Shown: positions 19,980-36,039 of the stretch, in pieces | Layout of the letters: each line of letters starts with the position of its first letter | How positions within the stretch are numbered: position 1 is the first letter of the stretch | Source: an uncultured Actinomycetes bacterium | Lineage (GTDB): Bacteria > Actinomycetota > Thermoleophilia > Gaiellales > JAICJC01 | Length of the DNA stretch: 64,000 nucleotides | NCBI GenBank assembly: GCA_963843705.1 | Contig: CAWJLQ010000010.1 | Location: 489 to 64,488, forward strand | Direction: 5' to 3' | Position numbers and translations under genes: made by a program | Notes under the pieces: generated by a model | Told to the model about the DNA's origin: nothing | The model's database searches: none | Seen by the model: only the letters and a program-made list of their open reading frames with translations

Positions 19980-20428
19980 CGACCGCGATCCGGCCGGCCC
20001 GGCCGGACGATGCTGCGGCTCTCCACGCGCTCGCCCTCGCGTCGAAGGGGATCTGGGGCTACGCACCCGAGAGGATCCGCGCGTGGGGGGAGACGCTCGA
20101 CATCGCCGCCGCGCTGGCTGACGAGGGCGAGGCCGTCGTCGCCGAGATCGACGGTCGCATCGCCGGTTGGGCGCGGGTGCTCGCGCCGCGCGACGGCGTC
20201 TCGGTGCTCGACCACCTCTGGGTGGAGCCCGGCTCGATGCGAATGGGAGTGGGCTCCGCGCTCTTCCGGTACGCGGCGGGGTCGGCGCTCGCGATGGGCG
20301 CGCGGACGATGGAGTGGGAGGCCGAGCCGAACGCGGCCGGCTTCTACGCCAGGATGCGCGGGCGGGTCGTGCGAGCGACGACATCCGAGTGGGGACGAAC
20401 GCTCGACGTCATGGCCGTCGACCTGTGA
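19976..20428 (+). CDS. GNAT acetyltransferase
   Basis: C-terminal 150 aa of ORF 19088..20428 (IRPARPDDAAAL...LWVEPGSMRMGVGSALF). No ATG/GTG nearby; CTG 19976 overlaps the lipA TGA, so the start is uncertain. Confidence 0.6.
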   Translation: MTTAIRPARPDDAAALHALALASKGIWGYAPERIRAWGETLDIAAALADEGEAVVAEIDGRIAGWARVLAPRDGVSVLDHLWVEPGSMRMGVGSALFRYAAGSALAMGARTMEWEAEPNAAGFYARMRGRVVRATTSEWGRTLDVMAVDL

Positions 20429-20461
20429 CGAACGTGCCACGCCGGTGTGATGGCCGGCGTT

Positions 20462-20513
20462 CGGGGTCAGACCCCGGGTTGGGGCCTGGCCCCGTCCGGC
20501 GGGGCCAGGCCCC
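20462..20513. repeat. Tandem array of three GC palindromes (CGGGGTCAGACCCCG, GGGGCCTGGCCCC, GGGGCCAGGCCCC) at a convergent gene junction
   Basis: Read directly. The same 13-15-mers recur at 7184, 45962, 52570 and 57625. Likely bidirectional terminators. Confidence 0.6.
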
Positions 20514-21219
20514 AATCCTCGAGCGACGCTCCCGCGAGCGCCGTCCGCAGCCCCGCCGAGCGCAGCCGCTCGGCGATCGCCGGGAGCGCGGCGGCCGTGC
20601 GCCGCCACGACCCCCTCGCCGAATAGGCGTCCGAGTCGTGCAGCAAGAGGATGTCGCCCGCGCGCACGCCGTCGGCGACGCGGCGCGCGATCGTCTCGGG
20701 GGTGGCCCGGCGCTCCCAGTCGCGCCCCCAGCGCGACCAGCTGACGAGCGGCAGCCCGGCGCCGGTCGCGTAGCGGAGCGTCGCCAGGCTCGCCGCCCCG
20801 AACGGGGCGCGCACGCTGTGCACCTCGGCGCCGGCGAGATCCTCGATCTCGGCCCGGGCGCGGGCGAGCATCCGCTCCACCGCGAGCGGCGGCACCAGGG
20901 CGTGCGGGAGGTGCCGGCCGCCGTGCACGCCGAGCTCGTGCCCGGCCGCGACGACGGCCCGCAGAGCCTCGGGGTGCCGGCGCGCCTGTGACGAGACGAC
21001 GTAGAAGGTCGCCGGCAGGCCGAGCCGCTCGAGCTCGTCGAGCACCGCGATCGTGCCCTCGGGATGGGGCCCGTCGTCGAAGGTGACCGCGACGGCGCCG
21101 GAGCGCGCATCGAGCCGGCGGACGACGCCCGGGAAGCGCAGCCCACCGACGGCGCCGAGACCGGGCGACGCATAGGCCGCCAGGGCGGCCGCCGCGGCTG
21201 CTGCTAGCGCCCTTCCCAC
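20467..21219 (-). CDS. Polysaccharide deacetylase (NodB/CE4 domain) with N-terminal hydrophobic anchor
   Basis: VAVTFDDGPHPEGT, HELGVHG and the LLHD region. GTG 21219 overlaps the upstream gene end by 16 nt. Confidence 0.8.
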   Translation of the reverse strand: MGRALAAAAAAALAAYASPGLGAVGGLRFPGVVRRLDARSGAVAVTFDDGPHPEGTIAVLDELERLGLPATFYVVSSQARRHPEALRAVVAAGHELGVHGGRHLPHALVPPLAVERMLARARAEIEDLAGAEVHSVRAPFGAASLATLRYATGAGLPLVSWSRWGRDWERRATPETIARRVADGVRAGDILLLHDSDAYSARGSWRRTAAALPAIAERLRSAGLRTALAGASLEDWGLAPPDGARPQPGV

Positions 21220-22421
21220 ACGTGGACGATCGGCGTCGCGTGGCTGGGCGCCGGCACCACCGCGACGGCGTCGGCCACCCTGTCGACCATCCCCAGCGCC
21301 ATGACCGTGGCCGTCAGCGCGGCCACCCGCCGGGCCCGCACAAGGGCGCGCGTCGGAACCGCCGCCGGCCGCACGCCGGCCAGGCATTCGGCCGTCGAGG
21401 GGCGCTCGAACAGCGCGGACGCGGCGGCGGCGGTCGTCGGCGCCGTCACCTCCCAGAACCGCTCGTCGGCGAGCAGGCCGCACATCGCCTCGGCGGACGC
21501 CGGGCACGTCACCATCCCCGCCCGCTCCATGTGCCGGCTGTTGTCCTCGCCGTGGCCGGGCAGCGGCTCGAACATCACGACCGGCAGGCCGGCGGCGAAG
21601 GCCTCGAGACACGTCAGCCCGCCCGCGTTGGCGATCAGGACGTCGCTCGCCGCCATGAGGCCCGGCATGCGATCCGTGAACCCGAGCACGACCGCGTCCG
21701 CGAGCTGCTCGTCCTGCTCGAGCCGCGCCTTCAGGCCGGCGTTCAGGCCGGTGACGACAACCGGCCGCACGCCCGGCAGCGACGCGACCGCCCGGGCCGC
21801 ACCGTGCAGGTTCCCCACCCCCCACGCGCCGCCGACGATCAGGGCCATGCGCTCCCCGGCACCGATCCCGAGCCGGCGGCGGGTGTGCATGCCGACGCCG
21901 GCGGCGACACGGAGGACGGGTACCGGCGGTCGCACCGACCGCATGCCGGGCAGGCCGGCGTGGCCGACGCCGAAGTTGTCGTCGAGCTCGCAGTGCACCC
22001 ACGCCGGGTGCGGGTCGAAGTCGGTGATCAGCGCACAGCACGGGACGTTCAGCCGGCCGGTGCGGCGCAGGCGCGCCAGCACCATCGACACGACCGGGTA
22101 CGCCGACACGACGCGGTCGTACCCGCCGGCCTCGATCCGCTCGAGCAGCGGCGCGCCGCCGCGCACCGCGAGGCCGGCGCCGAAGAGCCGGATCAGGCGC
22201 CGGGAGCGGGTGCCGCGGTAGAGCACCCGCCACGACCAGGCGGCGTGCTCGATCTGGCAGTGGTAGCCGTCGACGACGAGCCTGTGCACGCCGCGCCCGA
22301 GGAGCGCCAGACCGTCGTCGATCTCGACCTCGTGCCCGCGCGCGCGGAGCTCGGCCGCGACGCCGCGCGCGGCCGCGTCGTGCCCAGCCCCCACGGGGGC
22401 GGAAAGGATGAGGACCCGCAT
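21204..22421 (-). CDS. GT28 family glycosyltransferase (MGDG-synthase / UgtP-like diacylglycerol glycosyltransferase)
   Basis: MRVLILSAPVGAGHDAAARGVAAEL and DVLIANAGGLTCLEAFAAGLPVV. Confidence 0.85.
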   Translation of the reverse strand: MRVLILSAPVGAGHDAAARGVAAELRARGHEVEIDDGLALLGRGVHRLVVDGYHCQIEHAAWSWRVLYRGTRSRRLIRLFGAGLAVRGGAPLLERIEAGGYDRVVSAYPVVSMVLARLRRTGRLNVPCCALITDFDPHPAWVHCELDDNFGVGHAGLPGMRSVRPPVPVLRVAAGVGMHTRRRLGIGAGERMALIVGGAWGVGNLHGAARAVASLPGVRPVVVTGLNAGLKARLEQDEQLADAVVLGFTDRMPGLMAASDVLIANAGGLTCLEAFAAGLPVVMFEPLPGHGEDNSRHMERAGMVTCPASAEAMCGLLADERFWEVTAPTTAAAASALFERPSTAECLAGVRPAAVPTRALVRARRVAALTATVMALGMVDRVADAVAVVPAPSHATPIVHVWEGR

Positions 22422-22490
22422 ACTGGCCCTAGCGCGGCCTCGACCGCGGACGCACCGGCATGGGCGCAGAGCTTAGACGCTGGCCCGGGC

Positions 22491-23333
22491 ATGCGGGTGA
22501 CCACCCGGGCGGACGTCAACATTGCCTTAAACTCCGGCATCGTGAGCAGGTTCCGCATCCTGGAGTGGGGAGCCGGCGACCTGCCCGCGCTGGTGTGCCT
22601 GCACCGCGCCCGCGGGCACGCCCGCCGCTTCGAGCGCCTGGCACGGATGGTCGGCCGGCACCGCCGGGTGATCGCGTACGACCTGCGCGGGCACGGCCGC
22701 TCGCCGTGGTCGGGCCCGCACACTCTCCACCAGCACTCGCTCGACCTCGCAGAGGTGCTGGACGCCGCCGGGGTCGAGCAGGCCGCCCTGCTCGGCGACG
22801 GCTTCGGCTGCCGGGTTGCGCTCCATCACGCGGCGGCGCACGGCGAGCGCGTGACCGGCCTCGTCCTGCTCGACCCGCCCCTCGCTCCCGACCCGCAGCT
22901 GATGCTCGACCTGGCGGCGGTCGAGCGCAGGGCGCCGGCCTTCGCGAGCGCCGACGCCGCGCTCGCCGCCTGGGCCGGATACGCCGGCCTCGAGCACGCG
23001 CCGCGCTTCCTCCTCGAGGAGGACGTCGCCGAGCATCTGGTCGTCGACCAGGACGGCCGTCTGCGCTTCCGCTACTCGCACGACGCGGCGGCGGCGGCGC
23101 TCGAGGCGATGGCCGAGCCCGCCGGGAGCCTGAAGGAGATCGTCTGCCCCGTCCTGCTCGTGCACGGCCGTGGCTCGGCGCTGCTGTCGGCCGCAGACGT
23201 GGAGCGGGCCGCCCTGGAGCTGCGCCGATGCCGGGTCGCGACCGTACCGGGCGGCCACGCGCCGCTCTGGGACGCGCTGGCCGAGGCCGGCGCGCACGTG
23301 AAGGGCTTCGTCTCCACCCGCAGCCGCGCCTAG
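22491..23333 (+). CDS. Alpha/beta hydrolase fold protein (nucleophile position reads GDGFG)
   Basis: C-terminal 280 aa of ORF 21222..23333. YDLRGHGRS, LLGDGFGCRVAL, GGHAP. Confidence 0.75.
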   Translation: MRVTTRADVNIALNSGIVSRFRILEWGAGDLPALVCLHRARGHARRFERLARMVGRHRRVIAYDLRGHGRSPWSGPHTLHQHSLDLAEVLDAAGVEQAALLGDGFGCRVALHHAAAHGERVTGLVLLDPPLAPDPQLMLDLAAVERRAPAFASADAALAAWAGYAGLEHAPRFLLEEDVAEHLVVDQDGRLRFRYSHDAAAAALEAMAEPAGSLKEIVCPVLLVHGRGSALLSAADVERAALELRRCRVATVPGGHAPLWDALAEAGAHVKGFVSTRSRA

Positions 23334-23617
23334 CGCACGAGCGCGTAGACGATCACGCCGAGCAGGACGAGCACGAGCGCCGCGATCGGCACCGCCTGGG
23401 AGCCGGTGCGGGTGTCCACCACCCGCTGGTCGGGCGCCGGCGGCGGGTACATCGGCTCCTCCCCGGAGGCGATGCGGTGCGCGACCGCCTGGGCGGCGTC
23501 CGCCTTGACCAGCGCGGCGACCGCCTCGGGCTCGACGCCGAGCTCCGCGGCGATCTCGGCCTCGCCGGCGCCGCGATCGCGCAGCTCGATGAACCGGCGC
23601 ACCTGGTCGTCCTCCAT
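23330..23617 (-). CDS. Small tail-anchored membrane protein, function unknown
   Basis: ATG 23617. Soluble acidic N-terminus and C-terminal TM IAALVLVLLGVIVYALV. Its stop shares CTAG with the convergent gene. Confidence 0.45.
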   Translation of the reverse strand: MEDDQVRRFIELRDRGAGEAEIAAELGVEPEAVAALVKADAAQAVAHRIASGEEPMYPPPAPDQRVVDTRTGSQAVPIAALVLVLLGVIVYALVR

Positions 23618-23666
23618 GCCGAAGTCGGTCGCGTCCTGCGCGGCGAAGCGCAGGGCGAGGAAGCGG

Positions 23667-24392
23667 CTATCGGGCGGCGGGGACGGCAAGTTCGGCCCAG
23701 CGCTCGAAGATGCTGCGCCCGGTCGTCCGCATCGCCGCCTGGGCGGCGTCGAACTCACCCATCAGCCGTCCCATCCCGCCGTCGCCGAGGACACGGTCGG
23801 CGTAGGCCGCGTACTCGGGCACGAGCGCCCACTCGCGCGCCATCTCCGGGAGCACCTCGACGTGGAACTGGACGCCGTAGGCGCCGCGGCCGACGCGGAA
23901 GGCCTGGTGTGGATAGGCGGGCGACGAGGCGAGCAGCGTCGCGCCCTCGGGCAGGTCGAACGTATCGCCGTGCCACTGCAGGGTGGGGAACGACCGCGGC
24001 AGGCCGGCGAAGAGGGGGTCGGCCGCTCCCTCGTCCGTCAGCGTCACCGGCAGCACGCCGACCTCGGGGTCGGGGCCGGAGTAGACGCGCGCACCGAGGC
24101 TGGCCGCCAGCAGCTGCACGCCCAGGCAGGCGCCGAAGTAGGGCATGCCGGCGCGGACGGCATCGCCGATCGCGCGCTTCTCGGCGGTCAGCCACGGCAG
24201 GTCGGCGTCGTCGTTCACGCTCATCGGGCCGCCCATGGCGACGATGGCGTCGAAGCGGTCGAAGGACGGCAGCGGGTCGCCCTCGTCGAGCTCCACCCGG
24301 TGCAGGCGTGCGCCGCGTTCGAGGAGCACGGCCTCGTACTCGCCGGGCGGCTCGCAGGCGATGTGCTGCAGGACGACGACGTCCACGCTCAC
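23667..24392 (-). CDS. Class I glutamine amidotransferase (GATase1) domain protein
   Basis: GACLGVQLL nucleophile elbow and QFHVEV. The GTG overlaps the fumC TGA (GTGA). Confidence 0.8.
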
Positions 24393-25729
24393 GCCTCGCC
24401 CGTGTTGCTGCCGTGCGCCATCGCGTGCAGGTCGAGCGCCTTGTCCAGGATCTCGTCCGAGACGCCGTGCTCGCGAGCGACCTCGCGCAGCGAGCGGCCC
24501 GACGCGGCCGCGTCCTTCACGATCGCCGTCGCCGCGTCGTAGCCGATGTACGGGTTCAGGGCCGTCGCCACGGCGAGCGAGGCCTCGGCGTGGCGCTCGT
24601 TCTGCTCGCGGTTGGCCTCGATGCCGCGCACGCAGCGGGTGTCGAGCAGCCCGCAGGCGGAGGCGAGCAGGCCGACCGACTGCAGCAGGTTGCGGGCCAT
24701 GAGCGGGATCTGGACGTTCAGCTCGAAGTTCCCCTGCATGCCCCCGACGGCGATGGCGGCGTCGTTTCCGATCACCTGCGCGGCCACCTGGCAGCACACC
24801 TCGGGGATGACCGGGTTCACCTTGCCCGGCATGATCGAGCTGCCCTTCTGCAGCTCGGGCAGGAAGATCTCGGCCAGCCCGGCGCGCGGGCCGGAGCCCA
24901 TCCAGCGCAGGTCGTTCGCGATCTTCGTCAGCGACACGGCCACCGACCGCAGCCCACCCGAGGCCTCGACCAGCCCGTCGCGGTTGGCCTGCGCCTCGAA
25001 CGGGTCGGCCGGCGGATGGATCTCGAGTCCGGTCTCCTCGCTCAGCCGCGCACGCACGCGGGCGGCGAACTCGGGATGCGTGTTCAGGCCGGTGCCCGTG
25101 GCGGTGCCGCCGAGCGGGATCTTGCCCAGCCGCTCGAGCGTCGATCCGACGCGCGCGCGTCCCTCGCGGATCTGGGCCGCGTAGCCCCCGAACTCCTGGC
25201 CGAGCGTCACCGGGACGGCGTCCATCAGGTGCGTGCGGCCGGACTTGACGATGTCCTTGAACTCGTCGGCCTTCGCGGCGAGCGCGTCCGCGAGCAGCTC
25301 GAGCGCCGGATCGAGGTCGTGCACGATCCGGTCGAGGGCCGCCAGGTGGACGGCCGAGGGGAAGACGTCGTTCGACGACTGGCCCATGTTGACGTGGTCG
25401 TTCGGGTGCACGCCCTCGCCCGCGAGCGTGGCGATCACCTCGTTGGCGTTCATGTTCGACGACGTGCCCGATCCGGTCTGGAAGACGTCGATCGGGAACT
25501 GCTCGTCGTAGTCGCCGGCGGCGACGCGGTCGGCCGCCTCGGCGATGCGCGCGGCGACGCCGGCGTCGAGCAGCCCGAGGTCGGCGTTCACCCGTGCGGC
25601 TGCGGCCTTGATGCGCCCCAGCCAGTGGATCACGGCGGCCGGGATCGGCTCGCCGGACACCGGGAAGTTGTCGACCGCCTTGCGCGTCTCCGCGCCCCAA
25701 AGCTCTTGTTCATGCGTGATCTCGGCCAT
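24389..25729 (-). CDS. fumC: Class II fumarate hydratase
   Basis: [18 protein letters not shown] and [11 protein letters not shown] signature. Confidence 0.92.
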
Positions 25730-25750
25730 GGCATGGACATTACTCCGCGA

Positions 25751-26238
25751 CTACGGCGGCTGGGTGAGCCAGCGGCGTTGGGCGTGCCAGCGTTGGAGGG
25801 TGCGGCGGCTGGGGGTGTGGGCGGTGCAGGTGGTGCAGGCCGGGTGGGTGTGGAGGTGTGAGGGGTGCAGGGGTGGTGTGCCTTGGGCGTATCGGGCTTC
25901 GAGTTGGCGGCGCAGTTCGGGCCAGGAGTAGCTGCCCGGGCGTTTCCGTGGGGCGGGGGCGCGGAGGCTTGCAGGTGCGCGTCCAGCGCGTGGTGGCGGG
26001 CCTGGGTCATGCACCCGTTGGCCTGCCAGACGCCCCACAGGGTGCGGACGAAGTCTCTGCCGCCTCGGCGCGTCTGGAAGGCGTGGGAGGCGTGGCCGGG
26101 GCACAGCCACACCGTCACCCGGTAGCCGAGCCGGATTTCCTCGGTGCGGCCGCGGGTACGCTCGACACAGATCGCGCACACGGGTCGTTTCAGCGGCAGG
26201 TTGCGGGCTTTGTACAAGGTGGGCAGGGCGTCGGACAT
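25751..26238 (-). pseudogene. Cys/His-rich hypothetical ORF, apparently split by a 1-nt frameshift
   Basis: ATG 26238 gives MSDALPTLYKARNLPLKRPVCAICVER...WLCPGHASH. Protein-like sequence then continues in the +1 frame (KRPGSYSWPELRRQLEARYAQ...) to TAG 25751. Confidence 0.4.
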
Positions 26239-26319
26239 CGCGCAGATGAGTGTGACCGACGAACCGTCACGCGTGGGTGTCGAGGTGTGGCGAGAGTGTG
26301 GGGGAACTGCGACTGTCAC

Positions 26320-27698
26320 GAGCCTGCGCGTTTTTCTGTGTATCGGTGGGTGGTTAGGCATTGTCAGGGATGCGGTCTCCGAAGTGGATGCGCAGGACTG
26401 CCATCGCCTGTGTCCAGTTGTAGCAGGTGCGCCAGTTGGTCTTGGCGCGCATGATCGCGAGCCAGATCAACCTGAGGGCGGCGTCGTCGTTGGGGAAGTG
26501 GCCTCGGGTCTTGACCGTCTTGCGGATCTGCATGTGCAGGCTCTCGACCGTGTTTGTCGTGTAGACAACGCGGCGGATCTCCTGCGGGAAGGCGAGGAAG
26601 GGGATGAACCGCTCCCAGGCGCGTTCCCACACCTGCAGCGCCGCCGTCTTGGTCGTGCTGTCCGCCCAGGCAGCGGTCAGTTCGTCGAGCACCTGGCGGG
26701 CCTGGTCGGCGTCGGCGGCCGTGTACAGGCGGCGTAGCTCGCCGGCGCAGGTCTTGCGCTCCTTCCAGGACAGGTAGCGCAGGCTCTGCCTGGTCAGATG
26801 GACAACGCAGGTCTGGTTGACCGCCTCCGGGAAGACGGCGTCGATCGCCTCCGGGAAGCCGGTGAGGCCGTCGGTGCAGACGAACAGGACGTCGGTGACG
26901 CCGCGGTTGCGCAGCTCGGTCAGGACGCTCGTCCAGAAGCGGGCGCCCTCGGTCTTCTCAATCCAGAGGCCGAGGCAGTCGCGCTCGCCGTCGACGGTGA
27001 CGCCGATGGCCGAGTAGACGGCCTTCTTGCGGACGACCTGCTGGTCGCGGATCGCGACCTGGAGCGCGTCCAGGTACACGACGACATACAGCTCCTCCAG
27101 CGGCCGACTCTGCCAGGCGCGCACGTCGTCTTGGATCGAGGTGGTCACCTCCGACACCAAGCCGTCGGAGACGTCGACGCCGTACACCTCGCGCAGGTGC
27201 CGCTGGATCTCCCTGGTCGTCATCCCGCCCGCGTACAGGGCCAGGATCTGCTCGTCGAAGCCGTCGAACGAACGGCTGTGCTTGGGCACAATCCGCGGCT
27301 CGAAGCTGCCCTGTCGATCCCGGGGCAGCTCGACCGTCACCGGCCCGTCGACCGTCCGCAACGTCTTGCGCGAGCTGCCGTTGCGCCGGTTCGGCTGCTC
27401 CTGCGGCGCCTCACCGCCGGCAGGGTAACCGAGATGCTGCCCCAGCTCGGCGCCCGCGGCGCGCTCGATCAGCCGCTTCCGCAGCCGGTTGATCAAGCCA
27501 TCCGGACCGGTCAACTGCTCCGGCCCCTCATACCCCCCCAGCAGCTGATCGATCAGCTCGTCCGGGATCTCTCTGTGCTCGGCCATCAGGGCCTCCTTCC
27601 GGGCCGCCCGGCCCGGTCGCTCCGCTCACGGCTACGCCGCGAGCATCACGACCAGGCCGGACAGACCAGTCAGATACACAGAAATCCGCGCGGACTGC
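26320..27698 (-). mobile_element. IS256-family insertion sequence (about 1.38 kb) with imperfect terminal IRs and a 9-bp direct repeat GACTGTCAC
   Basis: Inner IR cores TTTCTGTGTATC (26333-44) and GATACACAGAAA (27673-84). Flanking GACTGTCAC at 26311-19 and 27699-07. Single mutator-type transposase inside. Confidence 0.85.
26354..27586 (-). CDS. IS256 family (mutator-type) transposase
   Basis: 410 aa. PRDRQGSFEPRIVPK, YLDALQV, VCTDGLTGFPEAI, VYTTNTVES. Confidence 0.95.
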   Translation of the reverse strand: MAEHREIPDELIDQLLGGYEGPEQLTGPDGLINRLRKRLIERAAGAELGQHLGYPAGGEAPQEQPNRRNGSSRKTLRTVDGPVTVELPRDRQGSFEPRIVPKHSRSFDGFDEQILALYAGGMTTREIQRHLREVYGVDVSDGLVSEVTTSIQDDVRAWQSRPLEELYVVVYLDALQVAIRDQQVVRKKAVYSAIGVTVDGERDCLGLWIEKTEGARFWTSVLTELRNRGVTDVLFVCTDGLTGFPEAIDAVFPEAVNQTCVVHLTRQSLRYLSWKERKTCAGELRRLYTAADADQARQVLDELTAAWADSTTKTAALQVWERAWERFIPFLAFPQEIRRVVYTTNTVESLHMQIRKTVKTRGHFPNDDAALRLIWLAIMRAKTNWRTCYNWTQAMAVLRIHFGDRIPDNA

Positions 27699-27750
27699 GA
27701 CTGTCACATGCCACCAGCGCCAACCGCCGTCTCCAGTTTGAATGCTTCGA

Positions 27751-27822
27751 CCTGGCTCCGAGGCCGGCCGGCGCGCCTCATTCAGCGCAGGCCGGCAGGC
27801 CTCGGGCGGCCCGCAGGGCCGC
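27751..27822 (+). repeat. 72-bp direct repeat, copy 1 (two-hairpin unit)
   Basis: Identical base for base to 29172-29243. Confidence 0.95.
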
Positions 27823-27966
27823 ATCGCCCCGGTGCTTTCGCCCATAGCGGCGCTGGGCGCCGCCCGCCGCAGCTCCGCCAGCTTCGAAAGGAGCGCTGTG
27901 CTGCGGCGGAAGAACCTCGCCCGCCCGAGACTGACGCATGCCAACGGCGCCAATCGGACGCTCCGC

Positions 27967-28980
27967 TCAGGGGAGCAGGCGCTCGAGACCGATCCCGCTC
28001 GTGAAGAGGTGCTCTCGGCGATCGGAGAGCAGGCGGGCCGCCCAGTCGACCGAACCACCATCTGCGAGCTCCCACTCCTCTCCGCGCAGCTCTGCGTCGA
28101 TGCGAAGCTGCAGGCCGTCGTAGTACCTGATGCCGTCCGTCCGGGTCAGGTCGATGAGCAGACGGCCGTCGGACGCCGCCGCGATCGGCGCCAGCGCCTC
28201 GGTCGCGGCTTCAAGGCGGCGCATGCGGCGGCCCAATCGGCGAGCCAGATCCGGAGGAAGGGCATCGCGGGGGCTGAGAACGTCAGGCATAACGGCCGCG
28301 CCAACACCAGTAGCTGCCAGGTGGATCGCCGTGTCGGAAATGCGCACAGCTGTTCGTCCGAGGGGGACGCCGAGCTCGCGCGCGGCCGCCACGATCGCAA
28401 GGTGGGCGCGGACGTGCTCCGCCATCGCATCGACCTCGGAACCGTGATCGGATCGCGATCGGGCGCCGGTTACCAGCGCGAAGATCACGAAATGCTGGAG
28501 GGCCGGCGGCTCGAATGCCTGTTGTCGCAGAACGCGGTGGGCCGCGCACATCCGCACCACGTCGACCCCCTCACGTCGTCGCCACGCCGCGCCGAGTGCC
28601 AGCGGCACGGTCGGGTCGGCGACCACTTCGGTCGCGCGCACCGTGGCCAGGACGTTGTTCTGATCGATCCCCGCAAGCACCGAGTTCGTCCCAACCGGCT
28701 CGACCGGAGCGAGCTCGACCGCCTCGTAGTCGGACACGGCGTCAAACGCCTCGACAACCAACCGTCCGAGCGCCCGTGCATCGATGCGACCGGCCTCGGT
28801 CGTGCGGTCGCGCCCGTACTGCGCCATCAGGTCGGTCGGCTTCCGACTCGCCGCTCGCGCGCGAGCCAGCTCCAGAAGGAGCGCTTGCACGTCGCTCGGT
28901 GAGGCGCGCTCCGAGAGGCGCTCAAGAAGGTCGGGAACGCCAACGTCTCGGCACACCCTCCGAACGACTGGACTCTCCAT
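27967..28980 (-). CDS. Orphan class II aminoacyl-tRNA synthetase core paralog (HisRS/HisZ-like), no anticodon-binding domain
   Basis: IDLTRTDGIRYYDGLQLRI, ADGGSVDW and FTSGIGLERLL match the HisRS/HisZ C-terminal motifs. Weaker motif 1 and 2 equivalents. Many A/T-ending codons, unlike neighbouring genes. Confidence 0.55.
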   Translation of the reverse strand: MESPVVRRVCRDVGVPDLLERLSERASPSDVQALLLELARARAASRKPTDLMAQYGRDRTTEAGRIDARALGRLVVEAFDAVSDYEAVELAPVEPVGTNSVLAGIDQNNVLATVRATEVVADPTVPLALGAAWRRREGVDVVRMCAAHRVLRQQAFEPPALQHFVIFALVTGARSRSDHGSEVDAMAEHVRAHLAIVAAARELGVPLGRTAVRISDTAIHLAATGVGAAVMPDVLSPRDALPPDLARRLGRRMRRLEAATEALAPIAAASDGRLLIDLTRTDGIRYYDGLQLRIDAELRGEEWELADGGSVDWAARLLSDRREHLFTSGIGLERLLP

Positions 28981-29171
28981 CCGCGCCGACCCTACATCGT
29001 GTCGGAGTTACGCGACATAGGCGCGATTTCGCCGAGCATCGAGCCCTGCGGTCAAGGGTCGTCGGCGCATCTTGAGAGAGCACCAGCACCATCGACACCT
29101 GACACATGCTGACGGCGCGAATTGCCGCGGCAAGGCCGCGACATCCGCCACCGGCCCAGCGTGGGAGCAGC

Positions 29172-29243
29172 CCTGGCTCCGAGGCCGGCCGGCGCGCCTC
29201 ATTCAGCGCAGGCCGGCAGGCCTCGGGCGGCCCGCAGGGCCGC
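29172..29243 (+). repeat. 72-bp direct repeat, copy 2
   Basis: Identical to 27751-27822. Confidence 0.95.
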
Positions 29244-29334
29244 GCTGTTCGCCCACAGGGGGCCGCGCAGCCCGTCCGCGGAAACGGGGAATGACACATG
29301 CGATGGAGCCAAGTGTCGCCATGGGACGCCCGAC

Positions 29335-29841
29335 GTGAGCGCGCCGCCCATCATTCTCGAGCCGTGGAGCGACGGCGACCTGCCGTTGCTCGAGCGGCCG
29401 CTGGGCGATCCGCGAACGACCGAGCACCTCGGAGGCCCCGAGAGCCCGCAGCAGCTGCGCGAGCGTCAGCGACGCTACGAGCGCCTCGAGGGCAGCGACC
29501 GCATGTTCAAGATCGTCGAGGCCGCGAGCGGTGAGGGGGTGAGCTCGGTCGGGGGCTGGACGAAGACGTGGCGGGACGCTGAGGTCTACGAAGTCGGCTG
29601 GATGGCCCTGCCCGGGTTCCAGGGCGGCGGCATCGCGGCGAGGGCGACGGCCGAGGCGATCGCCCTCGCCAGGCGCGACGGCGCGCACAGGTTCGTGCAC
29701 GCCTTCCCGAGCGTCGAGAACGCGCCGTCGAACGCGATCTGCCGCAAGCTCGGCTTCGAGCTGGTCGAGGCGTGCGAGTTCGAGTATCCCAGGGGACAAC
29801 TGATGACCTGCAACGACCGGCGCCTCGACCTGGGCGGCTGA
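29335..29841 (+). CDS. GNAT acetyltransferase (Acetyltransf_3 / RimJ-like)
   Basis: GTG 29335. EVGWMALPGFQGGGIAARA and ENAPSNAICRKLGF. Confidence 0.75.
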   Translation: MSAPPIILEPWSDGDLPLLERPLGDPRTTEHLGGPESPQQLRERQRRYERLEGSDRMFKIVEAASGEGVSSVGGWTKTWRDAEVYEVGWMALPGFQGGGIAARATAEAIALARRDGAHRFVHAFPSVENAPSNAICRKLGFELVEACEFEYPRGQLMTCNDRRLDLGG

Positions 29842-29851
29842 ACCGGCGGCG

Positions 29852-30208
29852 CTACTCGACCGGCGGGCCCCGGCGGGCCGATCGCCACACCAGACCGACC
29901 ACGAGGTCGACCATGATGCCGAGGACCGCGACGGCGAAGAGCAGGAGTATCAGGACACCGGTCCCGATCTCGCGGCCCGTCGGCCCGGGAGAGGCCGCGA
30001 GATCACGGTTGCTCGAGACGGCCAGCGCGGCCATCGCCAGTGCCAGGGCAAGCGCCCCGGCCCGGCTCAGGAAGAACGCCGCGCACAGCGCCACGACGAG
30101 AAACGACACGAACTCCGGGAACGCCGCCGCGCCCCCGGCGGTGAGCGACACCAGCGCGCCGATCGCGAGTACGACCAACGCGGTCGTCCGCCGGGCGCGC
30201 CGCGCCAA
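29852..30208 (-). CDS. Small 4-TM membrane protein
   Basis: 118-aa ORF with four hydrophobic segments. Confidence 0.5.
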   Translation of the reverse strand: MARRARRTTALVVLAIGALVSLTAGGAAAFPEFVSFLVVALCAAFFLSRAGALALALAMAALAVSSNRDLAASPGPTGREIGTGVLILLLFAVAVLGIMVDLVVGLVWRSARRGPPVE

Positions 30209-30209
30209 C

Positions 30210-31208
30210 CTACTCCGTCGAGTACTTCGGCTGCGCCTTCTCGCCGCGGATCCGCGCGACGGCGTGGTTCGCGGCCAGGGCCGCCTCGGCGAACCCCACG
30301 GTGATCAGCGTGATCTTGCCCTCGAACCCGGCGACATCCCCCGCCGCATACACCCCCGGCAGGTTCGTCTCGCAGGTCTGGTTCACCCTGATCTGGCGCT
30401 TGTTCGCGAACTCGAGTCCCCAGTTGGCGATCGGGCCGAGATGGGAGACGAACCCGAGCAGCGTCACGAGCTCGTCGCAGGCGACCTCGACCATCTCGCC
30501 GGTCTCGGTGTTCTCGACCGTGATCTGCTCGACGCGCCCGTTGCCGGCGGCCGCGCGCACCTCGCACGGCACCATGATCTCGACGAGGCCCTCCGCCGCG
30601 AGACGGCGCACCTCGTTGACCGACGACTCGAGGCCGCGGAAGCGGTCGCGGCGGTGGATCAGCCGGATCGGGGTCTCGGCCGTGTCCTGGAGCCCCATCG
30701 CCCAGTCGAGCGCGGAGTCGCCGCCGCCGACGAGCGCCACCCGCCGCCCGGCGAACGCCTCCTTGCGCTTCACGAAGTAGTGCAGGCCGTTGCCCTCCCA
30801 CCGCTCCAGGTCGGGCAGGTCGAGCTTGCGCGGGTTGAACGCCCCGTGGCCGGCCGTGATGATCACGGTGCGCGTGAGCAGCGTCTCGCCGGCGGCCGTG
30901 TGCAGCTCGATCACCTCGTCCTCGCGGTGCGTGATCGTCTCGATCACCTCGCCCAGCCGCACCTCGGGCTCGTACTGCATCGCCTGGTCGGTGAGCCGGT
31001 CGATCAGCTCCTGGCCGTTGATCCTGGGGTATCCGGCCACGTCGAAGATGTGCTTCTCGGGGTAGACGGCCGACACCTGGCCGCCCAGCTGCTCGAGGCT
31101 TTCGACGATGCGGACGCTCGCGTCGCGGTGGCCGCCGTAGTAGGCCGCCGCCAGGCCGGTCGGGCCACCGCCGACGATGGTGATGTCGATGATCTGCTCG
31201 GTGGCCAC
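30210..31208 (-). CDS. Ferredoxin-NADP+ reductase, thioredoxin-reductase-like type (YumC-like)
   Basis: IVGGGPTGLAAAYY, VALVGGGDSALDWA, GVYAAGDV. GTG 31208 within ORF 30210..31502. Confidence 0.85.
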   Translation of the reverse strand: MATEQIIDITIVGGGPTGLAAAYYGGHRDASVRIVESLEQLGGQVSAVYPEKHIFDVAGYPRINGQELIDRLTDQAMQYEPEVRLGEVIETITHREDEVIELHTAAGETLLTRTVIITAGHGAFNPRKLDLPDLERWEGNGLHYFVKRKEAFAGRRVALVGGGDSALDWAMGLQDTAETPIRLIHRRDRFRGLESSVNEVRRLAAEGLVEIMVPCEVRAAAGNGRVEQITVENTETGEMVEVACDELVTLLGFVSHLGPIANWGLEFANKRQIRVNQTCETNLPGVYAAGDVAGFEGKITLITVGFAEAALAANHAVARIRGEKAQPKYSTE

Positions 31209-31308
31209 CAACGGCAGTCTAGAAGACGGAGCTTGTGACAGCCGCCACCCCGCGAGAACCCGCTCGAATACAGGGATCCCGGCCGATCTGAGGCCGCGAT
31301 TGTGAGCG

Positions 31309-31318
31309 GTGCTATAGT
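31309..31318 (+). promoter_or_regulatory. Candidate extended -10 (TGcTATAGT) 8 nt upstream of the nuoA GTG; possible leaderless nuo transcript
   Basis: An AT-rich hexamer in otherwise GC-rich sequence. No SD between it and the start. Confidence 0.4.
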
Positions 31319-31326
31319 CGGCCTCG

Positions 31327-31689
31327 GTGCTCGGCGACTGGGCAGCATTCCTGGTCTTTGCGGCGATCGCATTCGTGATCCCGTTCAGCCTGCTCGTGGC
31401 GACGTTCACGCTCTCGACCCGAACGTCGCGGCACGCCGGTGACAAGAGCATCCCGTTCGAGTCCGGCGTGTCGTCGCACACGTTCACGGCCGGCCGGTTC
31501 ACCGTCAGCTACTACATGACCGCCCTGCTCTTCATCGTGTTCGACATCGAGATCGTCTTCCTCTACCCGCTGGCACTGGAGCTGCACGCGCTCAAGTGGT
31601 TCGGGCTGACCGAGATGGTCACGTTCGTCGTGCTCCTGGTCGTCGCGTACGCCTACGTCTGGCGGAGGGGGGCGCTGGAATGGCGGTGA
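31327..31689 (+). CDS. nuoA: NADH-quinone oxidoreductase subunit A
   Basis: PFESG...[20 protein letters not shown]. Confidence 0.9.
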
Positions 31690-32207
31690 CGCCGGTTCAC
31701 ATCGACCGCGCCGTGCGGTCGGAGGATCTCGAGCAGTACGTCATGCTGACGACCGTGGAGAAGGCGCTCGCGTGGGCGCAGTCGAACTCGATCTGGCCGG
31801 CCGGCTTCGGCCTGGCCTGCTGCGCGATCGAGATGATGTCGCTGCCCTCCCCGCGCTACGACATCGCCCGCTTCGGCGCCGAGGTGTTCCGCAGCTCGCC
31901 CCGCCAGTCCGACCTCCTGATCGTCTCGGGGCGGGTGTCGCACAAGATGTCGGCGCCGCTGCGGCAGGTGTACGACCAGATGCTCGTGCCCAAGTGGGTG
32001 ATGGCGATGGGAGCGTGCTCGAGCTCGGGCGGGATGTTCGCGAACTACGCCATCCTGCAGGGCGTGGACAAGATCGTGCCCGTGGACGTGCACGTGCCCG
32101 GCTGCCCCCCGCGGCCCGAGGCCGTGCTCGACGGGCTGCGCCTGATCCAGCGCAAGATCCGGGCCGGCATCCCGCCGGCGTACGAGCAGGAGAAGTCGAA
32201 GGCGTGA
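31680..32207 (+). CDS. nuoB: NADH-quinone oxidoreductase subunit B
   Basis: [25 protein letters not shown]. Confidence 0.93.
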
Positions 32208-32776
32208 CGGCGGCGCAGCTTGCGGCGGCGGTCCGAAAGGCCGTGCCCGGATCCGTCGTCTCGCACGAGAAGGGCATCGACATGCCGACGCTGACCGTGA
32301 AGCCGGAGAAGCTCGTCGAGGTGTGCACCTACCTGCGCGATGAGCAGGGCAAGAACTTCCTCTCGGCAGTCTCGGCCGTCGACCACCTCGGCTACGGCGA
32401 CGAGGTGTCCGGCTACTTCGGCACGGAGCGCGGCCGCGACCTGAACGCGACCGGGAGCTGGGGCGCGGCCGAGACGCCGGCGCAGCCGCCGAAGCGCTTC
32501 GCCGTCCGCTACCACGTCGCCCACGTCGGCGACGGCCCGCCCGAGCGCGTGCGCGTGCAGGTGTGGCTGGACGACGGCCAGGAGGTGGCGAGCGTCGTCC
32601 CGGTGTGGCCGACGGCCGACTGGCACGAGCGCGAGCAGTACGACCTGATGGGCATCGTCTTCGCCGGCCATCCCAACCTGCGCCGGCTGATCCTGCCGAC
32701 CGACTGGGACGGCCATCCCCTGCGCAAGGACTATCCGATCGGCGGCGAGCCGGTCCAGTTCACGGACGCCGTATGA
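32204..32776 (+). CDS. nuoC: NADH-quinone oxidoreductase subunit C
   Basis: [18 protein letters not shown]; GTGA overlap with nuoB. Confidence 0.9.
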
Positions 32777-34035
32777 GCATCGTCGAGCGCCCACCCGCCC
32801 CGGTCGAGCCGCTCTACACGCCCGCGCGCATCCCGCCCGGCGCGCCGTCGAAGGTCGACCCGCCGCCGGGCGAGGATCTGATCACCGTCAACTTCGGGCC
32901 CAACCACCCGTCGACGCACGGGGTGCTGCGCCTGATCGTGACCCTCGACGGCGAGGTGGTCGTCGGCCTCGACGCCGACATCGGCTACGTCCACACCGGC
33001 TTCGAGAAGAACTTCGAGCAGAAGACCTACTGGAAGTGCATCCCGTACGCGCCGCGGATGGACTACGTCGCCTTCTTCGCGAACGAGCTGGCCTATGTCG
33101 GCGCCGTGGAGAAGCTGATCGGGATCGAGGTGCCGGAGCGGGCGCAGTGGATCCGCACGCTCTTCGCCGAGCTGAACCGCATCCACAGCCACCTCATCTA
33201 CCTGGGCACGTCCGGGGTCGAGATGGGCGCGATGTCGGTGTTCTTCTACTGCCTGCGCGAGCGCGACGCGGTGCTCGACCTGTTCGAGATGGCCACCGGC
33301 GTGCGCATGCACGACCGCTACCCGCAGATCGGCGGCGTGGCCGAGGACCTGCCGAAGGGCTTCTACGCCGAGTGCCGCAAATTCTGCGAGATGATGCCCA
33401 AGCGCATCGACGAGTACCTCGACCTCCTGGCCGGGAACCCGGTCTGGAAGTCGCGCTACCACGGCATCGGCGCCATCACGGCAGACACGGCGATCGCGAT
33501 GGGGCTGTCCGGCCCGAACCTGCGCGCGAGCGGCGTCGCCTACGACCTGCGCCGCGTCGAGCCCTACCTCGTCTACGACCAGGTGGACTTCGACGTCATC
33601 CTCGGCGAGCGCGGCGACGCCTACGACCGCTTCCTGTGCCGGACGAAGGAGATGTACGAGTCGGTCAGGATCATCGAGCAGTGCCTCGACAAGATGCCCT
33701 CCGGGCCGGTGATGGCGACCGATCGCAAGTACGTGCTGCCGCCGCGGGCGGAGCTGCACACGTCGATGGAGTCGCTGATCCACCACTTCAAGCTCGTCAC
33801 CGAGGGCTTCCGTGTGCCGCCCGGCCAGGTGTATTACCCGGTCGAGTCGCCGCGGGGCGAGTTCGGCTGCTACCTCGTCTCCGACGGCGGCCCGAAGCCG
33901 TGGCGGGTGCACTTCCGCGCGCCGAGCTTCGTCAGCCTGCAGGTGACGGCGATGATGTCGGTCAACCGCTACATCGGCGACATGATCGTCGTCGTCGGCT
34001 CGCTCGACGGCGTCATGGGCGAGGCGGACCGGTAA
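32773..34035 (+). CDS. nuoD: NADH-quinone oxidoreductase subunit D
   Basis: NFGPNHPSTHGVLRL, ESPRGEFG; ATGA overlap with nuoC. Confidence 0.95.
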   Translation: MSIVERPPAPVEPLYTPARIPPGAPSKVDPPPGEDLITVNFGPNHPSTHGVLRLIVTLDGEVVVGLDADIGYVHTGFEKNFEQKTYWKCIPYAPRMDYVAFFANELAYVGAVEKLIGIEVPERAQWIRTLFAELNRIHSHLIYLGTSGVEMGAMSVFFYCLRERDAVLDLFEMATGVRMHDRYPQIGGVAEDLPKGFYAECRKFCEMMPKRIDEYLDLLAGNPVWKSRYHGIGAITADTAIAMGLSGPNLRASGVAYDLRRVEPYLVYDQVDFDVILGERGDAYDRFLCRTKEMYESVRIIEQCLDKMPSGPVMATDRKYVLPPRAELHTSMESLIHHFKLVTEGFRVPPGQVYYPVESPRGEFGCYLVSDGGPKPWRVHFRAPSFVSLQVTAMMSVNRYIGDMIVVVGSLDGVMGEADR

Positions 34036-34176
34036 AGATGGTCGACTCCGAACTCAACGCGCGCCCGGACGCACGACGGTCAGACGCCAGTTCAGCCACT
34101 ATGGCCGCTTCCTGCGTCCTTGCGCCGCTCGGTTCTCGCCCCCCAGGACATCACGTGAATTCGGAGTCGACCATCT
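34036..34176 (+). repeat. 141-nt hairpin element with perfect 17-bp terminal inverted repeats, filling the nuoD-nuoE gap
   Basis: AGATGGTCGACTCCGAA (34036-52) and TTCGGAGTCGACCATCT (34160-76). Inner pair GGACGCA (34067-73) / TGCGTCC (34113-19). Confidence 0.85.
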
Positions 34177-34177
34177 A

Positions 34178-34732
34178 GTGGACCCGGCCACCGCAGAGAC
34201 GCTCCGCGGCGCGCTCGAGACGCGCCCCGACATGCCCGCGCCGCTGCCGCCGGACGACACGAGCGCGCCGCTGCGCGACCGCATCCTGGCCGTCGTCGCG
34301 CTCTACCCGGAGCCGCGCTCGGCGCTGATCCCGGCGTTGCGCCTGGCCCAGGAGGAGTACGGCTGGCTGACGACCGAGGCCTACGAGCTGGTGGCCGACG
34401 CGACCGGGTTCACACCCGCTCTCTGCAAGTCGGTGGCATCGTTCTACGACATGTTCCGGCTGCAGCCGGTGGGCCGGCACGAGATCTGCGTGTGCACCAA
34501 CATCTCGTGCGCGCTCGTCGGCGCCGGCGAGACGGTGCGCGCGTTCGAGCGCGAGCTCGGCATCCAGGCCGGCGAGACGACGGCCGACGGCGCCTTCACG
34601 CTGCGCACCGTCGAGTGCTACGGCGGCTGCGGCTGGGGCCCGGTCGTCTCGGTCGACGAGCGCTACCACGAGCCCTTCGGCCCCGACCGCGTGAAGCCGC
34701 TCGTGGACGAGCTGCGGGGCGACGCGGGATGA
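34178..34732 (+). CDS. nuoE: NADH-quinone oxidoreductase subunit E
   Basis: CTNISCALVGA...ECYGGCGWGP 2Fe-2S motif. Confidence 0.9.
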   Translation: MDPATAETLRGALETRPDMPAPLPPDDTSAPLRDRILAVVALYPEPRSALIPALRLAQEEYGWLTTEAYELVADATGFTPALCKSVASFYDMFRLQPVGRHEICVCTNISCALVGAGETVRAFERELGIQAGETTADGAFTLRTVECYGGCGWGPVVSVDERYHEPFGPDRVKPLVDELRGDAG

Positions 34733-36039
34733 GCGAGCTGCGCAGGATCCTGCTCGACTTCGAGGGCGACCACCGCGACGTGCACGCCTACGAGCAGGCC
34801 GGCGGCTACGCGTCGCTGCGCAAGGCGCTCGGGATGGACACCGGCGACGTGGTCGCGGCGGTGGACGCCTCCGGCCTGCGCGGCCGCGGCGGCGCCGGCT
34901 TCCCGACCGGCCGCAAGGCCTCGTTCCTGCCCAAGGGGCGCACGCCGGCCTACCTGTGCGTGAACGCGGACGAGTCGGAGCCGGGCACGTTCAAGGACCG
35001 CGAGATCATGCTGCGCAACCCGCACGCGCTGATCGAGGGCATCGTGATCATGAGCTACGGGATCTCGGCCACCTCGGCGTTCATCTACATCCGCGGCGAG
35101 TACCGCACCGAGTTCGAGGTGCTGAAGCGGGCGCTCGAGGAGGCCCACGGCCGAGGCTATGTGGGCCGCAACGTGCTCGGGTCGGGCTACGACGCGACGA
35201 TCGTCCTGCACCGCGGCGCGGGCGCCTACATCTGCGGTGAGGAGACGGCGCTCCTGACCTCGCTCGAGGGCGAGCGCGGCCAGCCGCGCTCGAAGCCCCC
35301 GTTCCCGGCCGTCGCCGGCCTGTACGCGGCGCCGACGCTCGTGAACAACGTCGAGACGCTCGCGTCGGTGCCGTACATCCTGGAGATGGGCGGCGAGGCC
35401 TACGCCGCGATCGGCACCGAGCGCTCCAAGGGCACGCGCGTGTTCTCGCTGTCGGGCAACGTGAAGCGGCCCGGGAACTACGAGCTCCCGCTGACTGCCA
35501 CGTTGCGCGACCTGATCGAAGGCCGCGGCGGCGGAGCGCCGGACGGGCGCTCGATCAAGGCCATCATCCCCGGCGGCTCCTCGACGCCGCTGCTCATGCC
35601 CGACCAGCTCGACACCGGCATCGACTACGAGTCGATCGCGGCGGCGGGCTCGATGGCGGGCTCCGGAGCGGTGGTCGTGATCGACGACCGCGCCTGCATG
35701 GTGCAGCTCGCGCTGCGGGTGGCGCAGTTCTACCGCCACGAGAGCTGCGGCAAGTGCACGCCCTGCCGCGAGGGCACGAAGTGGGGCGTCGACATCATCC
35801 AGCGGATCGAGGACGGCACCGCCTCGCAGGGCGACCTCGACCTGCTCCTGAACGTGTGCGACCGCATCCTGGGCAAGTGCCTGTGCCCGCTGGGCGACGC
35901 GATGGCGATGCCGGTGGCGAGCTACGTCACCCACTTCCGCGAGGAGTTCCAGCGGCACATCGACGAGGGCGGCTGCCCGTTCGTCGAGCAGAGCCCGATC
36001 GCGAGCCTCTACCACGACACGGGCGGAGTGCCGGCGTGA
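34729..36039 (+). CDS. nuoF: NADH-quinone oxidoreductase subunit F
   Basis: GLRGRGGAGFPTG and ESCGKCTPCREG. Confidence 0.95.
   Translation: MSELRRILLDFEGDHRDVHAYEQAGGYASLRKALGMDTGDVVAAVDASGLRGRGGAGFPTGRKASFLPKGRTPAYLCVNADESEPGTFKDREIMLRNPHALIEGIVIMSYGISATSAFIYIRGEYRTEFEVLKRALEEAHGRGYVGRNVLGSGYDATIVLHRGAGAYICGEETALLTSLEGERGQPRSKPPFPAVAGLYAAPTLVNNVETLASVPYILEMGGEAYAAIGTERSKGTRVFSLSGNVKRPGNYELPLTATLRDLIEGRGGGAPDGRSIKAIIPGGSSTPLLMPDQLDTGIDYESIAAAGSMAGSGAVVVIDDRACMVQLALRVAQFYRHESCGKCTPCREGTKWGVDIIQRIEDGTASQGDLDLLLNVCDRILGKCLCPLGDAMAMPVASYVTHFREEFQRHIDEGGCPFVEQSPIASLYHDTGGVPA

Follow-up and report, generated by a model that had tools for sequence, protein, structure and literature searches.

A perfect 72-nucleotide direct repeat around a HisZ-like gene in an uncultured actinobacterium: probable local duplication of a structured element found upstream of a small conserved gene

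The locus described here lies within a 64,000-nucleotide (64-kb) stretch of DNA from an uncultured Actinomycetes bacterium, referred to below as the window, and is centred on two copies of a 72-nucleotide (nt) sequence, the 72-mer. As the original prediction had stated, the copies are identical at 72/72 nt (100% identity) and stand in direct orientation, with 1,349 nt between them; from start to start the distance is 1,421 nt. A 48-nt core of the 72-mer, searched for with ≤3 mismatches, gave these two sites only in the window, and 0/100 shuffles matched; no other long perfect repeat was found in the window. On its left the pair of repeats is preceded by a small conserved gene on the minus strand, here called geneX, and by an element of the IS256 family that ends 53-56 nt from copy 1 (52 nt had been predicted). 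The only gene between the copies is, as predicted, a HisZ-like open reading frame (ORF). To the right of copy 2 lie a gene for a GNAT acetyltransferase, a 118-residue ORF and a TrxR-like reductase gene. The features of the locus are collected in Table 1.

Table 1. Features of the locus. Positions are those of the window; hp, hairpin; aa, amino acids; IS, insertion sequence.
Feature	Position	Strand	Description and evidence
geneX	25751-26238	-	Encodes a small, conserved protein rich in Cys and His; usual companion of the element; 60 metagenomic relatives
geneX proximal upstream region	26239-26319, resuming at 27698-27735 without the IS		nhmmer E 6.4e-17; by-eye alignment of ~45 loci
IS256-family element	~26320-27697	-	410-aa Transposase_mut, Pfam 6.6e-116; inserted within motif A1
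Motif A1, right-hand part	27695-27735	+	nhmmer E 3.2e-5; left part at 26297-26319, motif split by IS256
72-nt repeat, copy 1	27751-27822		7-nt leader, hp1 27758-27805, hp2 27806-27822; exact repeat, fold, orthologous single copies
Diverged right-hand extension of the duplicated segment	27823-27872		Partner 29244-29282; alignment past an 11-nt indel
Second hairpin module, inverted	27847-27909		hp2' 27847-27863 and two-tier hp3 27864-27909 (CCGCCGCAGC...GCTGCGGCGG)
Motif A2	27930-27957	+	nhmmer E 5e-4; repeats A1 in direct orientation beyond the cluster of hairpins
HisZ/HisRS-fold orphan paralogue, 337 aa	27967-28980	-	Only convincing ORF between the copies
Motif A3	29097-29128	+	nhmmer E 9.5e-3; exact CTGACACATGC
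72-nt repeat, copy 2	29172-29243		hp1 29179-29226, hp2 29227-29243; between divergent HisZ-like (-) and GNAT (+) genes
Motif A4, weak	29290-29320	+	nhmmer E 0.1; one mismatch to CTGACACATGC
GNAT (RimJ/RimL-type) acetyltransferase	29335-29841	+	P0096 identical; in the lineage-specific segment
118-aa hydrophobic (small membrane) ORF	29852-30208	-	Right end of the lineage-specific segment; adjoins the TrxR-like stop codon

Each copy of the 72-mer folds into the two hairpins that had been predicted. The first, hp1, is an 18-bp bulged hairpin (about 16 bp in the original prediction); the second, hp2, directly adjoins it and is a 7-bp hairpin with a GCA loop. Folded as DNA, the 72-mer gave -33.6 kcal/mol (z = -4.7); folded as RNA with its flanks, it gave z = -2.8 on the plus strand and z = -3.3 on the minus strand. 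Rfam gave 0 matches in the window at the gathering thresholds and chance-level ones only at E <= 10 (miRNA models, 16-25 bits). Nothing relevant was found in the literature on Gaiellales intergenic repeats.

A covariance model of the module (R1) was searched against the window and 68 further loci (302 kb in total). It matched the window at 27756-27824 (+), at 29177-29245 (+), where copy 2 scores 75.9 bits, and at 27845-27911 (-), with 46.1 bits and E 2e-5. Because this last match is on the opposite strand, the hp2'-hp3 module that follows copy 1 is taken as an inverted relative of hp1-hp2. hp3 is conserved in three orthologous genomic loci (L009-L011, described below) and in many metagenomic ones.

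The hairpins are accompanied by a 30-nt motif, motif A, of the form (C/A)TGACACATGCC-N5-GCGCCAAC. It occurs four times in the window (27695, 27930, 29097 and 29290), always on the plus strand and always at this locus, and an nhmmer profile built from other loci only picked the same four sites, A1-A4, in the 64 kb. In the window A2, which is kept in L009-L011, adjoins the HisZ-like stop codon, and A4 precedes the start codon of the GNAT gene (GTG 29335) by 15-44 nt. In L011 and in a distant clade the 3' half of the motif is a dyad, CGCCA-N2-TGGCG. To judge from its sequence, motif A is probably a protein-binding site, and the Cys/His-rich geneX protein is a candidate binder. Both copies of the 72-mer share the order hairpins, motif A, minus-strand start codon. 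The hairpins are 39 nt from motif A and the motif 75 nt from the start codon at geneX; the corresponding distances for A3 at the HisZ-like gene are ~60 nt (about 45-60 nt, depending on where the motif is taken to end) and 119 nt.

The N-terminus of the geneX protein in relatives reads MxxLPTLYKARNLPLKRPVCAIC..., and the protein has no match in Pfam, NCBIfam or PADLOC. Upstream of the gene, ~45 metagenomic loci share a non-coding region of ~105 nt with an inverted repeat, GTGTGAC-N9-GTCACAC, beside the start codon. In sequence this region looks like the operator/promoter region of an unstudied small protein. The preference of Alifold for the G-rich strand of this region was due to composition and was set aside.

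In the window this unit has been disturbed. Compared with L009 and L010, geneX carries a -1 frameshift after about codon 89, with an indel near 25960-25975, and the C-terminal half stays open in a different frame (ORF 25751-26179). Either the gene is a pseudogene, or the frameshift stems from a sequencing error. The IS256 element, which has imperfect terminal inverted repeats and a direct duplication of 10-13 bp (26307/26310-26319 and 27695/27698-27707), separates geneX from most of its element, and its removal in silico restores the sequence as found in L009-L011. Given both the insertion and the frameshift, and provided that the latter is not a sequencing error, the original geneX unit may be in decay in this genome. 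In a metagenomic locus, L041, a second transposase gene of Mutator/IS256 type (171-1151, 23% amino-acid identity) lies just past motif A upstream of geneX, so that this small element has received two independent IS insertions, one in the window and one in L041.

The stem pattern of the hairpins was scanned against 185,579 species genomes. It was found in three of them, with one copy each (L009, L010 and L011) and always at the orthologous locus. The three are one Gaiellales metagenome-assembled genome (MAG) and two MAGs designated 'uncultured Actinomycetes', one being a complete 4.28-Mb chromosome. The order at all three loci is geneX start, proximal region ending in motif A (...CTGACACATGCC-N5-GCGCCAAC), hp1-hp2, a variable spacer, hp2', hp3 and motif A2, and the surroundings are those of copy 1 in the window minus the IS. 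L009 and L010 also share the neighbours fumC (90% amino-acid identity) and the TrxR-like reductase (88-90%); the HisZ-like gene, the GNAT gene, the 118-residue ORF and a second hairpin copy are all absent from both. The right flank of the single copy (hp2'-hp3-A2) matches the sequence that follows copy 1 in the window and not that which follows copy 2. Copy 1 is thus the intact ancestral site and not a hybrid attL. It is also the source of the duplication, since the 72-mer leader, CCTGGCT (CCTGG.T), is orthologous to the context in L009 and L010 (CTGGTTCTT and GGTTTTTT).

Within this clade all stem positions are identical, whereas third codon positions of fumC are 73-74% identical; the differences are confined to the leader, the loops and one bulge of the 72-mer. 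The slot between motif A2 and the TrxR-like gene is filled differently in each close relative: by the HisZ-like gene, the GNAT gene and the 118-residue ORF in the window, by a 154-aa ORF with no Pfam match in L010 (4229-4693, -), and in L009 by just a 3' remnant of that ORF (6153-6365, +). At the position of the 118-residue ORF, L009 and L010 hold 190-540 nt of other sequence.

A scan of metagenomes with a geneX alignment gave 60 further loci (L014-L073). In ~40 of the 60, motif A begins upstream of geneX at a distance of exactly 75 nt from the start codon, and GC-rich hairpins follow it in every lineage, varying in number and sequence. The hp1-hp2 pair recurs in a second clade, in which geneX is ~71% identical and the stems differ (CCGACGACGG.../...CGTCGTCGG and AGAGCCC/GGGCTCT). 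In an alignment of nine sequences, 6/26 pairs were changed on both sides and 95% of the cells were paired, compared with 22-48% when the 3' partners were slid. The compensatory pairs and the contrast with the slid controls indicate that the ability to form the hairpins is under selection. That the 72-mer or motif A might encode protein was considered and rejected: the substitutions preserve structure and show no codon periodicity.

The compensatory pairs also back a different explanation, in which the element is, or lies within, a structured RNA. Transcription of this small RNA or extended 5' leader would begin in the motif-A region, and the genome would now have two paralogous copies of it. 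All wobble cells are G-U when read on the plus strand of the window (3-4 independent cases), the second copy would fall in the leader of the GNAT gene, and in L010 and L011 motif A2 stands 48-59 nt upstream of a plus-strand ORF; with no Rfam family matched, such an RNA would be new. However, R1 finds a similar module in the opposite orientation 20 nt away, which removes the argument from the wobbles, and the assignment of a strand on that basis was dropped. Moreover, loci disagree on which gene lies downstream on the plus strand, often a convergent one; scans gave no consensus promoter or terminator; and hairpin number and sequence vary by lineage while motif A and the proximal region stay constant. 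We consider a structured RNA doubtful.

In the 302 kb searched, R1 matched solely regions upstream of geneX. For this reason the element is not regarded as a dispersed repetitive extragenic palindromic (REP) sequence, and the high-copy family of repeats at random intergenic sites that would have undone the original prediction was not encountered, either in the genome scan or in the search of the window. An origin as a REP-like element, or as a miniature mobile palindrome transposed locally, would suit an imperfect GC-rich palindrome in intergenic DNA, two modules in inverted arrangement as in a bacterial interspersed mosaic element (BIME), the sharp left edge of the duplicated segment, and the IS256-family insertions next to motif A at two independent loci (the window and L041). 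It is nevertheless very unlikely: the stem pattern is present once per genome in only 3/185,579 genomes, the complete chromosome included, and always at the orthologous locus; no match to the covariance model lies elsewhere in the window or away from geneX; and the flanks of either 72-mer copy hold neither terminal inverted repeats nor a target duplication. The sole target-site duplication at the locus is that of the IS256 element.

Neither L009-L011 nor the 60 metagenomic geneX loci have an equivalent of copy 2. The similarity of copy 2 to copy 1 does not stop at the end of the 72-mer: beyond an 11-nt indel, ~31/41 columns match (~76%; z = 6.2, with 0/300 shuffles reaching the score). To the left of the 72-mer the copies have unrelated flanks (z ~0), and the duplicated segment has a sharp edge on this side. 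Inside the 72-mer the copies agree at ~20 positions that are free to vary between orthologues, while the 41 adjoining columns hold ~10 differences in addition to the indel. If divergence in the core had kept pace with that of the adjoining columns, these ~20 positions would all be unchanged with a probability of ~0.76^20 = 0.004. Because the core is identical even at its free positions and the adjoining columns have diverged, a duplication followed by gene conversion is proposed. In the first step, an older duplication of at least 120 nt would have produced copy 2, and the segment would since have diverged to ~76% identity; in the second, a recent non-reciprocal recombination would have made the 72-nt core identical. 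Invariant stems would favour a conversion tract at this place. Copy 1 would then be the ancestral element, cut off from the frameshifted geneX by IS256, and copy 2 a partial paralogue consisting of motif A3, hp1-hp2, the start of the next hairpins and the weak A4.

The HisZ-like protein (a shorter annotated form is P0002) was modelled with AlphaFold2 (AF2; mean confidence score, pLDDT, 83.5). The best Foldseek match of the model was HisZ of the HisZG ATPPRT (8oy0; E 7.6e-12, TM ~0.54), followed by HisRS catalytic domains (~1e-10); as modelled, the protein has the class II catalytic fold of HisRS type without the anticodon-binding domain. On account of these matches 'HisZ-like' is a fair label for the fold. 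PF13393 (tRNA-synt_His) scored 16.3 bits, below its cut-off of 25, and matched weakly (E <= 0.01) in 14/21 homologues. The gene has no NCBIfam match and no his genes as neighbours in any context seen, and a sequence-profile search of the PDB gave chance matches only. The family comprises ~95 homologues, mostly from soil metagenomes and all annotated as 'hypothetical', and its G+C content at third codon positions (GC3) is low in every genome examined. Some members (P0071, P0076 and P0077 were noted) are fused to an N-terminal GNAT domain, as in P0077, and the orphan may be an amino-acid-activating or regulatory paralogue that works with an acetyltransferase. A functional pairing with the GNAT protein of the window was considered and is unsupported, the GNAT domain of the P0077 type having no detectable similarity to it.

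The predicted foreign composition of the HisZ-like gene was borne out as a measurement, with a GC3 of 0.78 compared with 0.92 +/- 0.05 for other ORFs of the window (fumC 0.96, GNAT 0.93), but it does not signal recent import: GC3 is equally low (0.77-0.81, with neighbours at 0.88-0.95) in homologues from two unrelated contexts, which makes it a trait of the family. The gene has nevertheless moved, as its contexts elsewhere are quite different. Homologues lie between an aldo-keto reductase gene and a short-chain dehydrogenase/reductase (SDR) gene, and the stretch homologous to the contig of the closest homologue (L012) has its limits at 27965 and 29005. Traces of neither the 72-mer nor motif A were seen in the contexts of the homologues (L001-L008, L012 and L013). 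On one independent contig, L046, a HisZ-like gene (1-805, 80-87% amino-acid identity) ends ~60 nt from geneX motif A1 with no hairpins between them, which places the gene beside the element in more than one lineage. The DNA specific to the lineage of the window amounts to ~2.25 kb (~27956-30209) and holds the HisZ-like gene, copy 2, the GNAT gene and the 118-residue ORF. The closest homologue of the GNAT protein (77% identity) is encoded in an unrelated operon, and neither PADLOC nor NCBIfam matched the proteins of the segment.

The main reading of the original prediction was a cassette or mini-island bounded by att-like sites. In such a scheme a circle with the HisZ-like gene and one element copy would have integrated by a single crossover in the conserved core, through homologous recombination or a recombinase acting in trans. 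Exactly one gene is flanked by the direct repeats, relatives have one copy and no HisZ-like gene, and the gene has moved, being found elsewhere between the aldo-keto reductase and SDR genes; L046 would mean that it landed beside geneX motif A1 more than once, or in an ancestor. A perfect identity of 72 bp suffices for RecA-dependent recombination, and the repeats could still release the gene as a 1,421-bp circle. The arrangement of the flanks, however, does not fit. In a Campbell-type insertion the right flank of the empty site must follow the distal copy; here hp2'-hp3-A2 follows copy 1, and the insertion is therefore unsupported. The search for an empty site that had been suggested thus did yield one copy without the HisZ-like gene, in L009 and L010, but in the wrong arrangement for insertion at an att site. 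With unrelated left flanks and right flanks at ~76%, donor and recipient would have been diverged, and conversion would still be needed for the identical core. The GNAT gene and the 118-residue ORF are likewise specific to this lineage and yet lie outside the repeats, so that the lineage-specific DNA is larger than the interval between the repeats, which had been taken as the cassette; copy 2 lies inside this larger segment.

No recombinase gene is present in the 2.25-kb segment or beside the repeats, where the genes encode the HisRS-fold protein, the GNAT protein, the 118-residue ORF and the IS256 DDE transposase. ARAGORN found no tRNA or tmRNA in 20000-36000, and a scan of viral contigs with the hairpin junction gave no match. 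A recombinational cassette is thus unlikely, although it keeps some weight. There is a slim chance of a variant in which motif A and the hairpins act as a 'landing pad' that captures single genes, later lost through duplicated copies, as an integrase-free form of cassette exchange. If true, it would account for the break in synteny beyond the element, where the neighbour differs in nearly every lineage, and for the HisZ-like gene abutting motif A in two lineages.

An assembly artefact, in which the shared 72-mer would have closed a loop in the graph, was also considered. The source is apparently a metagenome assembly, identical proteins are recorded on one contig of 283,648 bp only, and the frameshift in geneX could be a sequencing error. 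On the other hand, both passages of the path through the 72-mer have unique, coherent sequence on either side, the divergence of the right-hand extension is not what a graph collapse would yield, and the independent assembly L046 likewise has a HisZ-like gene beside the geneX element. An artefact is hardly credible.

We therefore regard it as moderately probable that the 72-mer is the two-hairpin core of a locus-specific structured element upstream of geneX, that this element was duplicated locally and its core homogenised, and that it serves as an insulator or operator. In Gaiellales-type soil actinobacteria the element would normally be present once, upstream of geneX, and the ancestral layout on the plus strand would be the geneX start, the ~105-nt proximal region ending in motif A, the GC-rich hairpin cluster and then any upstream gene. 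Of the alternatives in the original prediction, the duplicated 5' module ahead of two minus-strand genes fits best, except that the first of these genes is geneX and not the IS256 transposase gene. The anatomy of the element, its conservation and structure-preserving substitutions, its single-copy orthologues and its absence of dispersal are established. The element belongs to an uncharacterised yet conventional kind of cis-element, a hairpin and operator module associated with a gene.

As to function, the nearest upstream ORF is co-directional with geneX in 24 of the 30 loci with enough sequence, and most of these ORFs end 180-380 nt before geneX. The hp2'-hp3 module is recognisably constant across loci while the upstream gene differs. 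The hairpins follow a stop codon, precede the motif-A region and stay constant as the upstream gene changes, and for these reasons we infer a terminator-like insulator that belongs to geneX. It would stop read-through from the upstream gene before the region of the motif-A promoter or operator.

Several points weigh against this interpretation. A scan of 27600-29450 for consensus terminators on both strands gave 0 terminator-like sites, with no U-tract after any hairpin, and a scan for consensus promoters found no site at the locus. At 6/30 loci geneX and its neighbour are divergent, as with a surE-like gene ~25 nt past hp3, and a terminator would have no evident task there. Copy 2 lies between divergent genes and would block only transcripts running antisense through the GNAT gene, and the distal motifs A2 and A4 are left without a role. 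The compensatory changes mostly divide two clades, which means few independent events, and they fit RNA and DNA structure alike. The proposed gene conversion is read from the pattern of identity, and the copies counted in the source genome are those within the 64-kb window.

Two further observations were made in the window. The TrxR-like gene (ferredoxin-NADP reductase type, 30210-31502, -) has a longest ORF of 430 aa; in relatives the protein (334 aa) begins at the counterpart of residue 97. Its true start is probably near 31214, since the region upstream of the relatives' start is only 65-71% conserved at the amino-acid level. A 60-nt direct repeat of 75% identity (6495-6554 and 6774-6833, 279 nt apart) is probably internal to a coding region.

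If the proposed history is correct, the locus provides a worked example of how a perfect repeat around one compositionally odd gene can arise when a constrained regulatory hairpin is duplicated locally and undergoes gene conversion, and the repeat would mark no new mobile cassette. The 72-bp repeats predict that recombination could delete the HisZ-like gene. A by-product of the analysis is a previously undescribed structured intergenic element, present at ~50 loci of uncultured soil actinobacteria, with compensatory changes and assigned to no Rfam family. As a candidate insulator, terminator or operator module, it comes from a phylum in which termination without a U-tract is still debated.

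Among known systems the element can be compared with 'I-shaped' terminators, GC-rich hairpins without a U-tract that have been described for mycobacteria; of the canonical intrinsic terminator it has the hairpin and lacks the U-tract. Like the I-shaped terminators, it is a strong GC-rich stem-loop with compensatory changes and no T-run, usually just past the stop codon of a co-directional gene and ahead of the next promoter region. Unlike them, it travels with the downstream geneX and not with the gene that it would terminate, and it consists of a long and a short hairpin, sometimes as an inverted pair of modules, flanked by a conserved 30-nt motif; termination is a presumed function here.

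With proteobacterial REP sequences and BIMEs the element shares imperfect intergenic palindromes and pairs in inverted orientation, but it is found at one locus per genome, always that of geneX. No RAYT-type gene turned up, although no search was aimed at RAYT. Miniature elements derived from an IS, or miniature inverted-repeat transposable elements (MITEs), differ from the 72-mer copies, which have no terminal inverted repeats or target-site duplication.

The attL/attR identity segments of actinomycete integrative elements in tRNA genes are 58-112 bp long. The 72-mer resembles them as a perfect direct repeat of similar length on both sides of inserted DNA, present as a single copy in relatives; here, however, there is no integrase and no tRNA, and the ancestral flank follows the proximal copy while lineage-specific DNA lies beyond the distal one. 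The attC sites of integrons are similar in that a hairpin-forming site of ~70 nt stands on both sides of one ORF and its structure is conserved above its sequence between clades. They differ in that the 72-mer, within which neither a GTT nor an AAC triplet occurs, lacks the GTTRRRY/RYYYAAC core, is present in only two copies without an array or an IntI gene, and belongs to an element that is conserved at an orthologous locus which is not a cassette.

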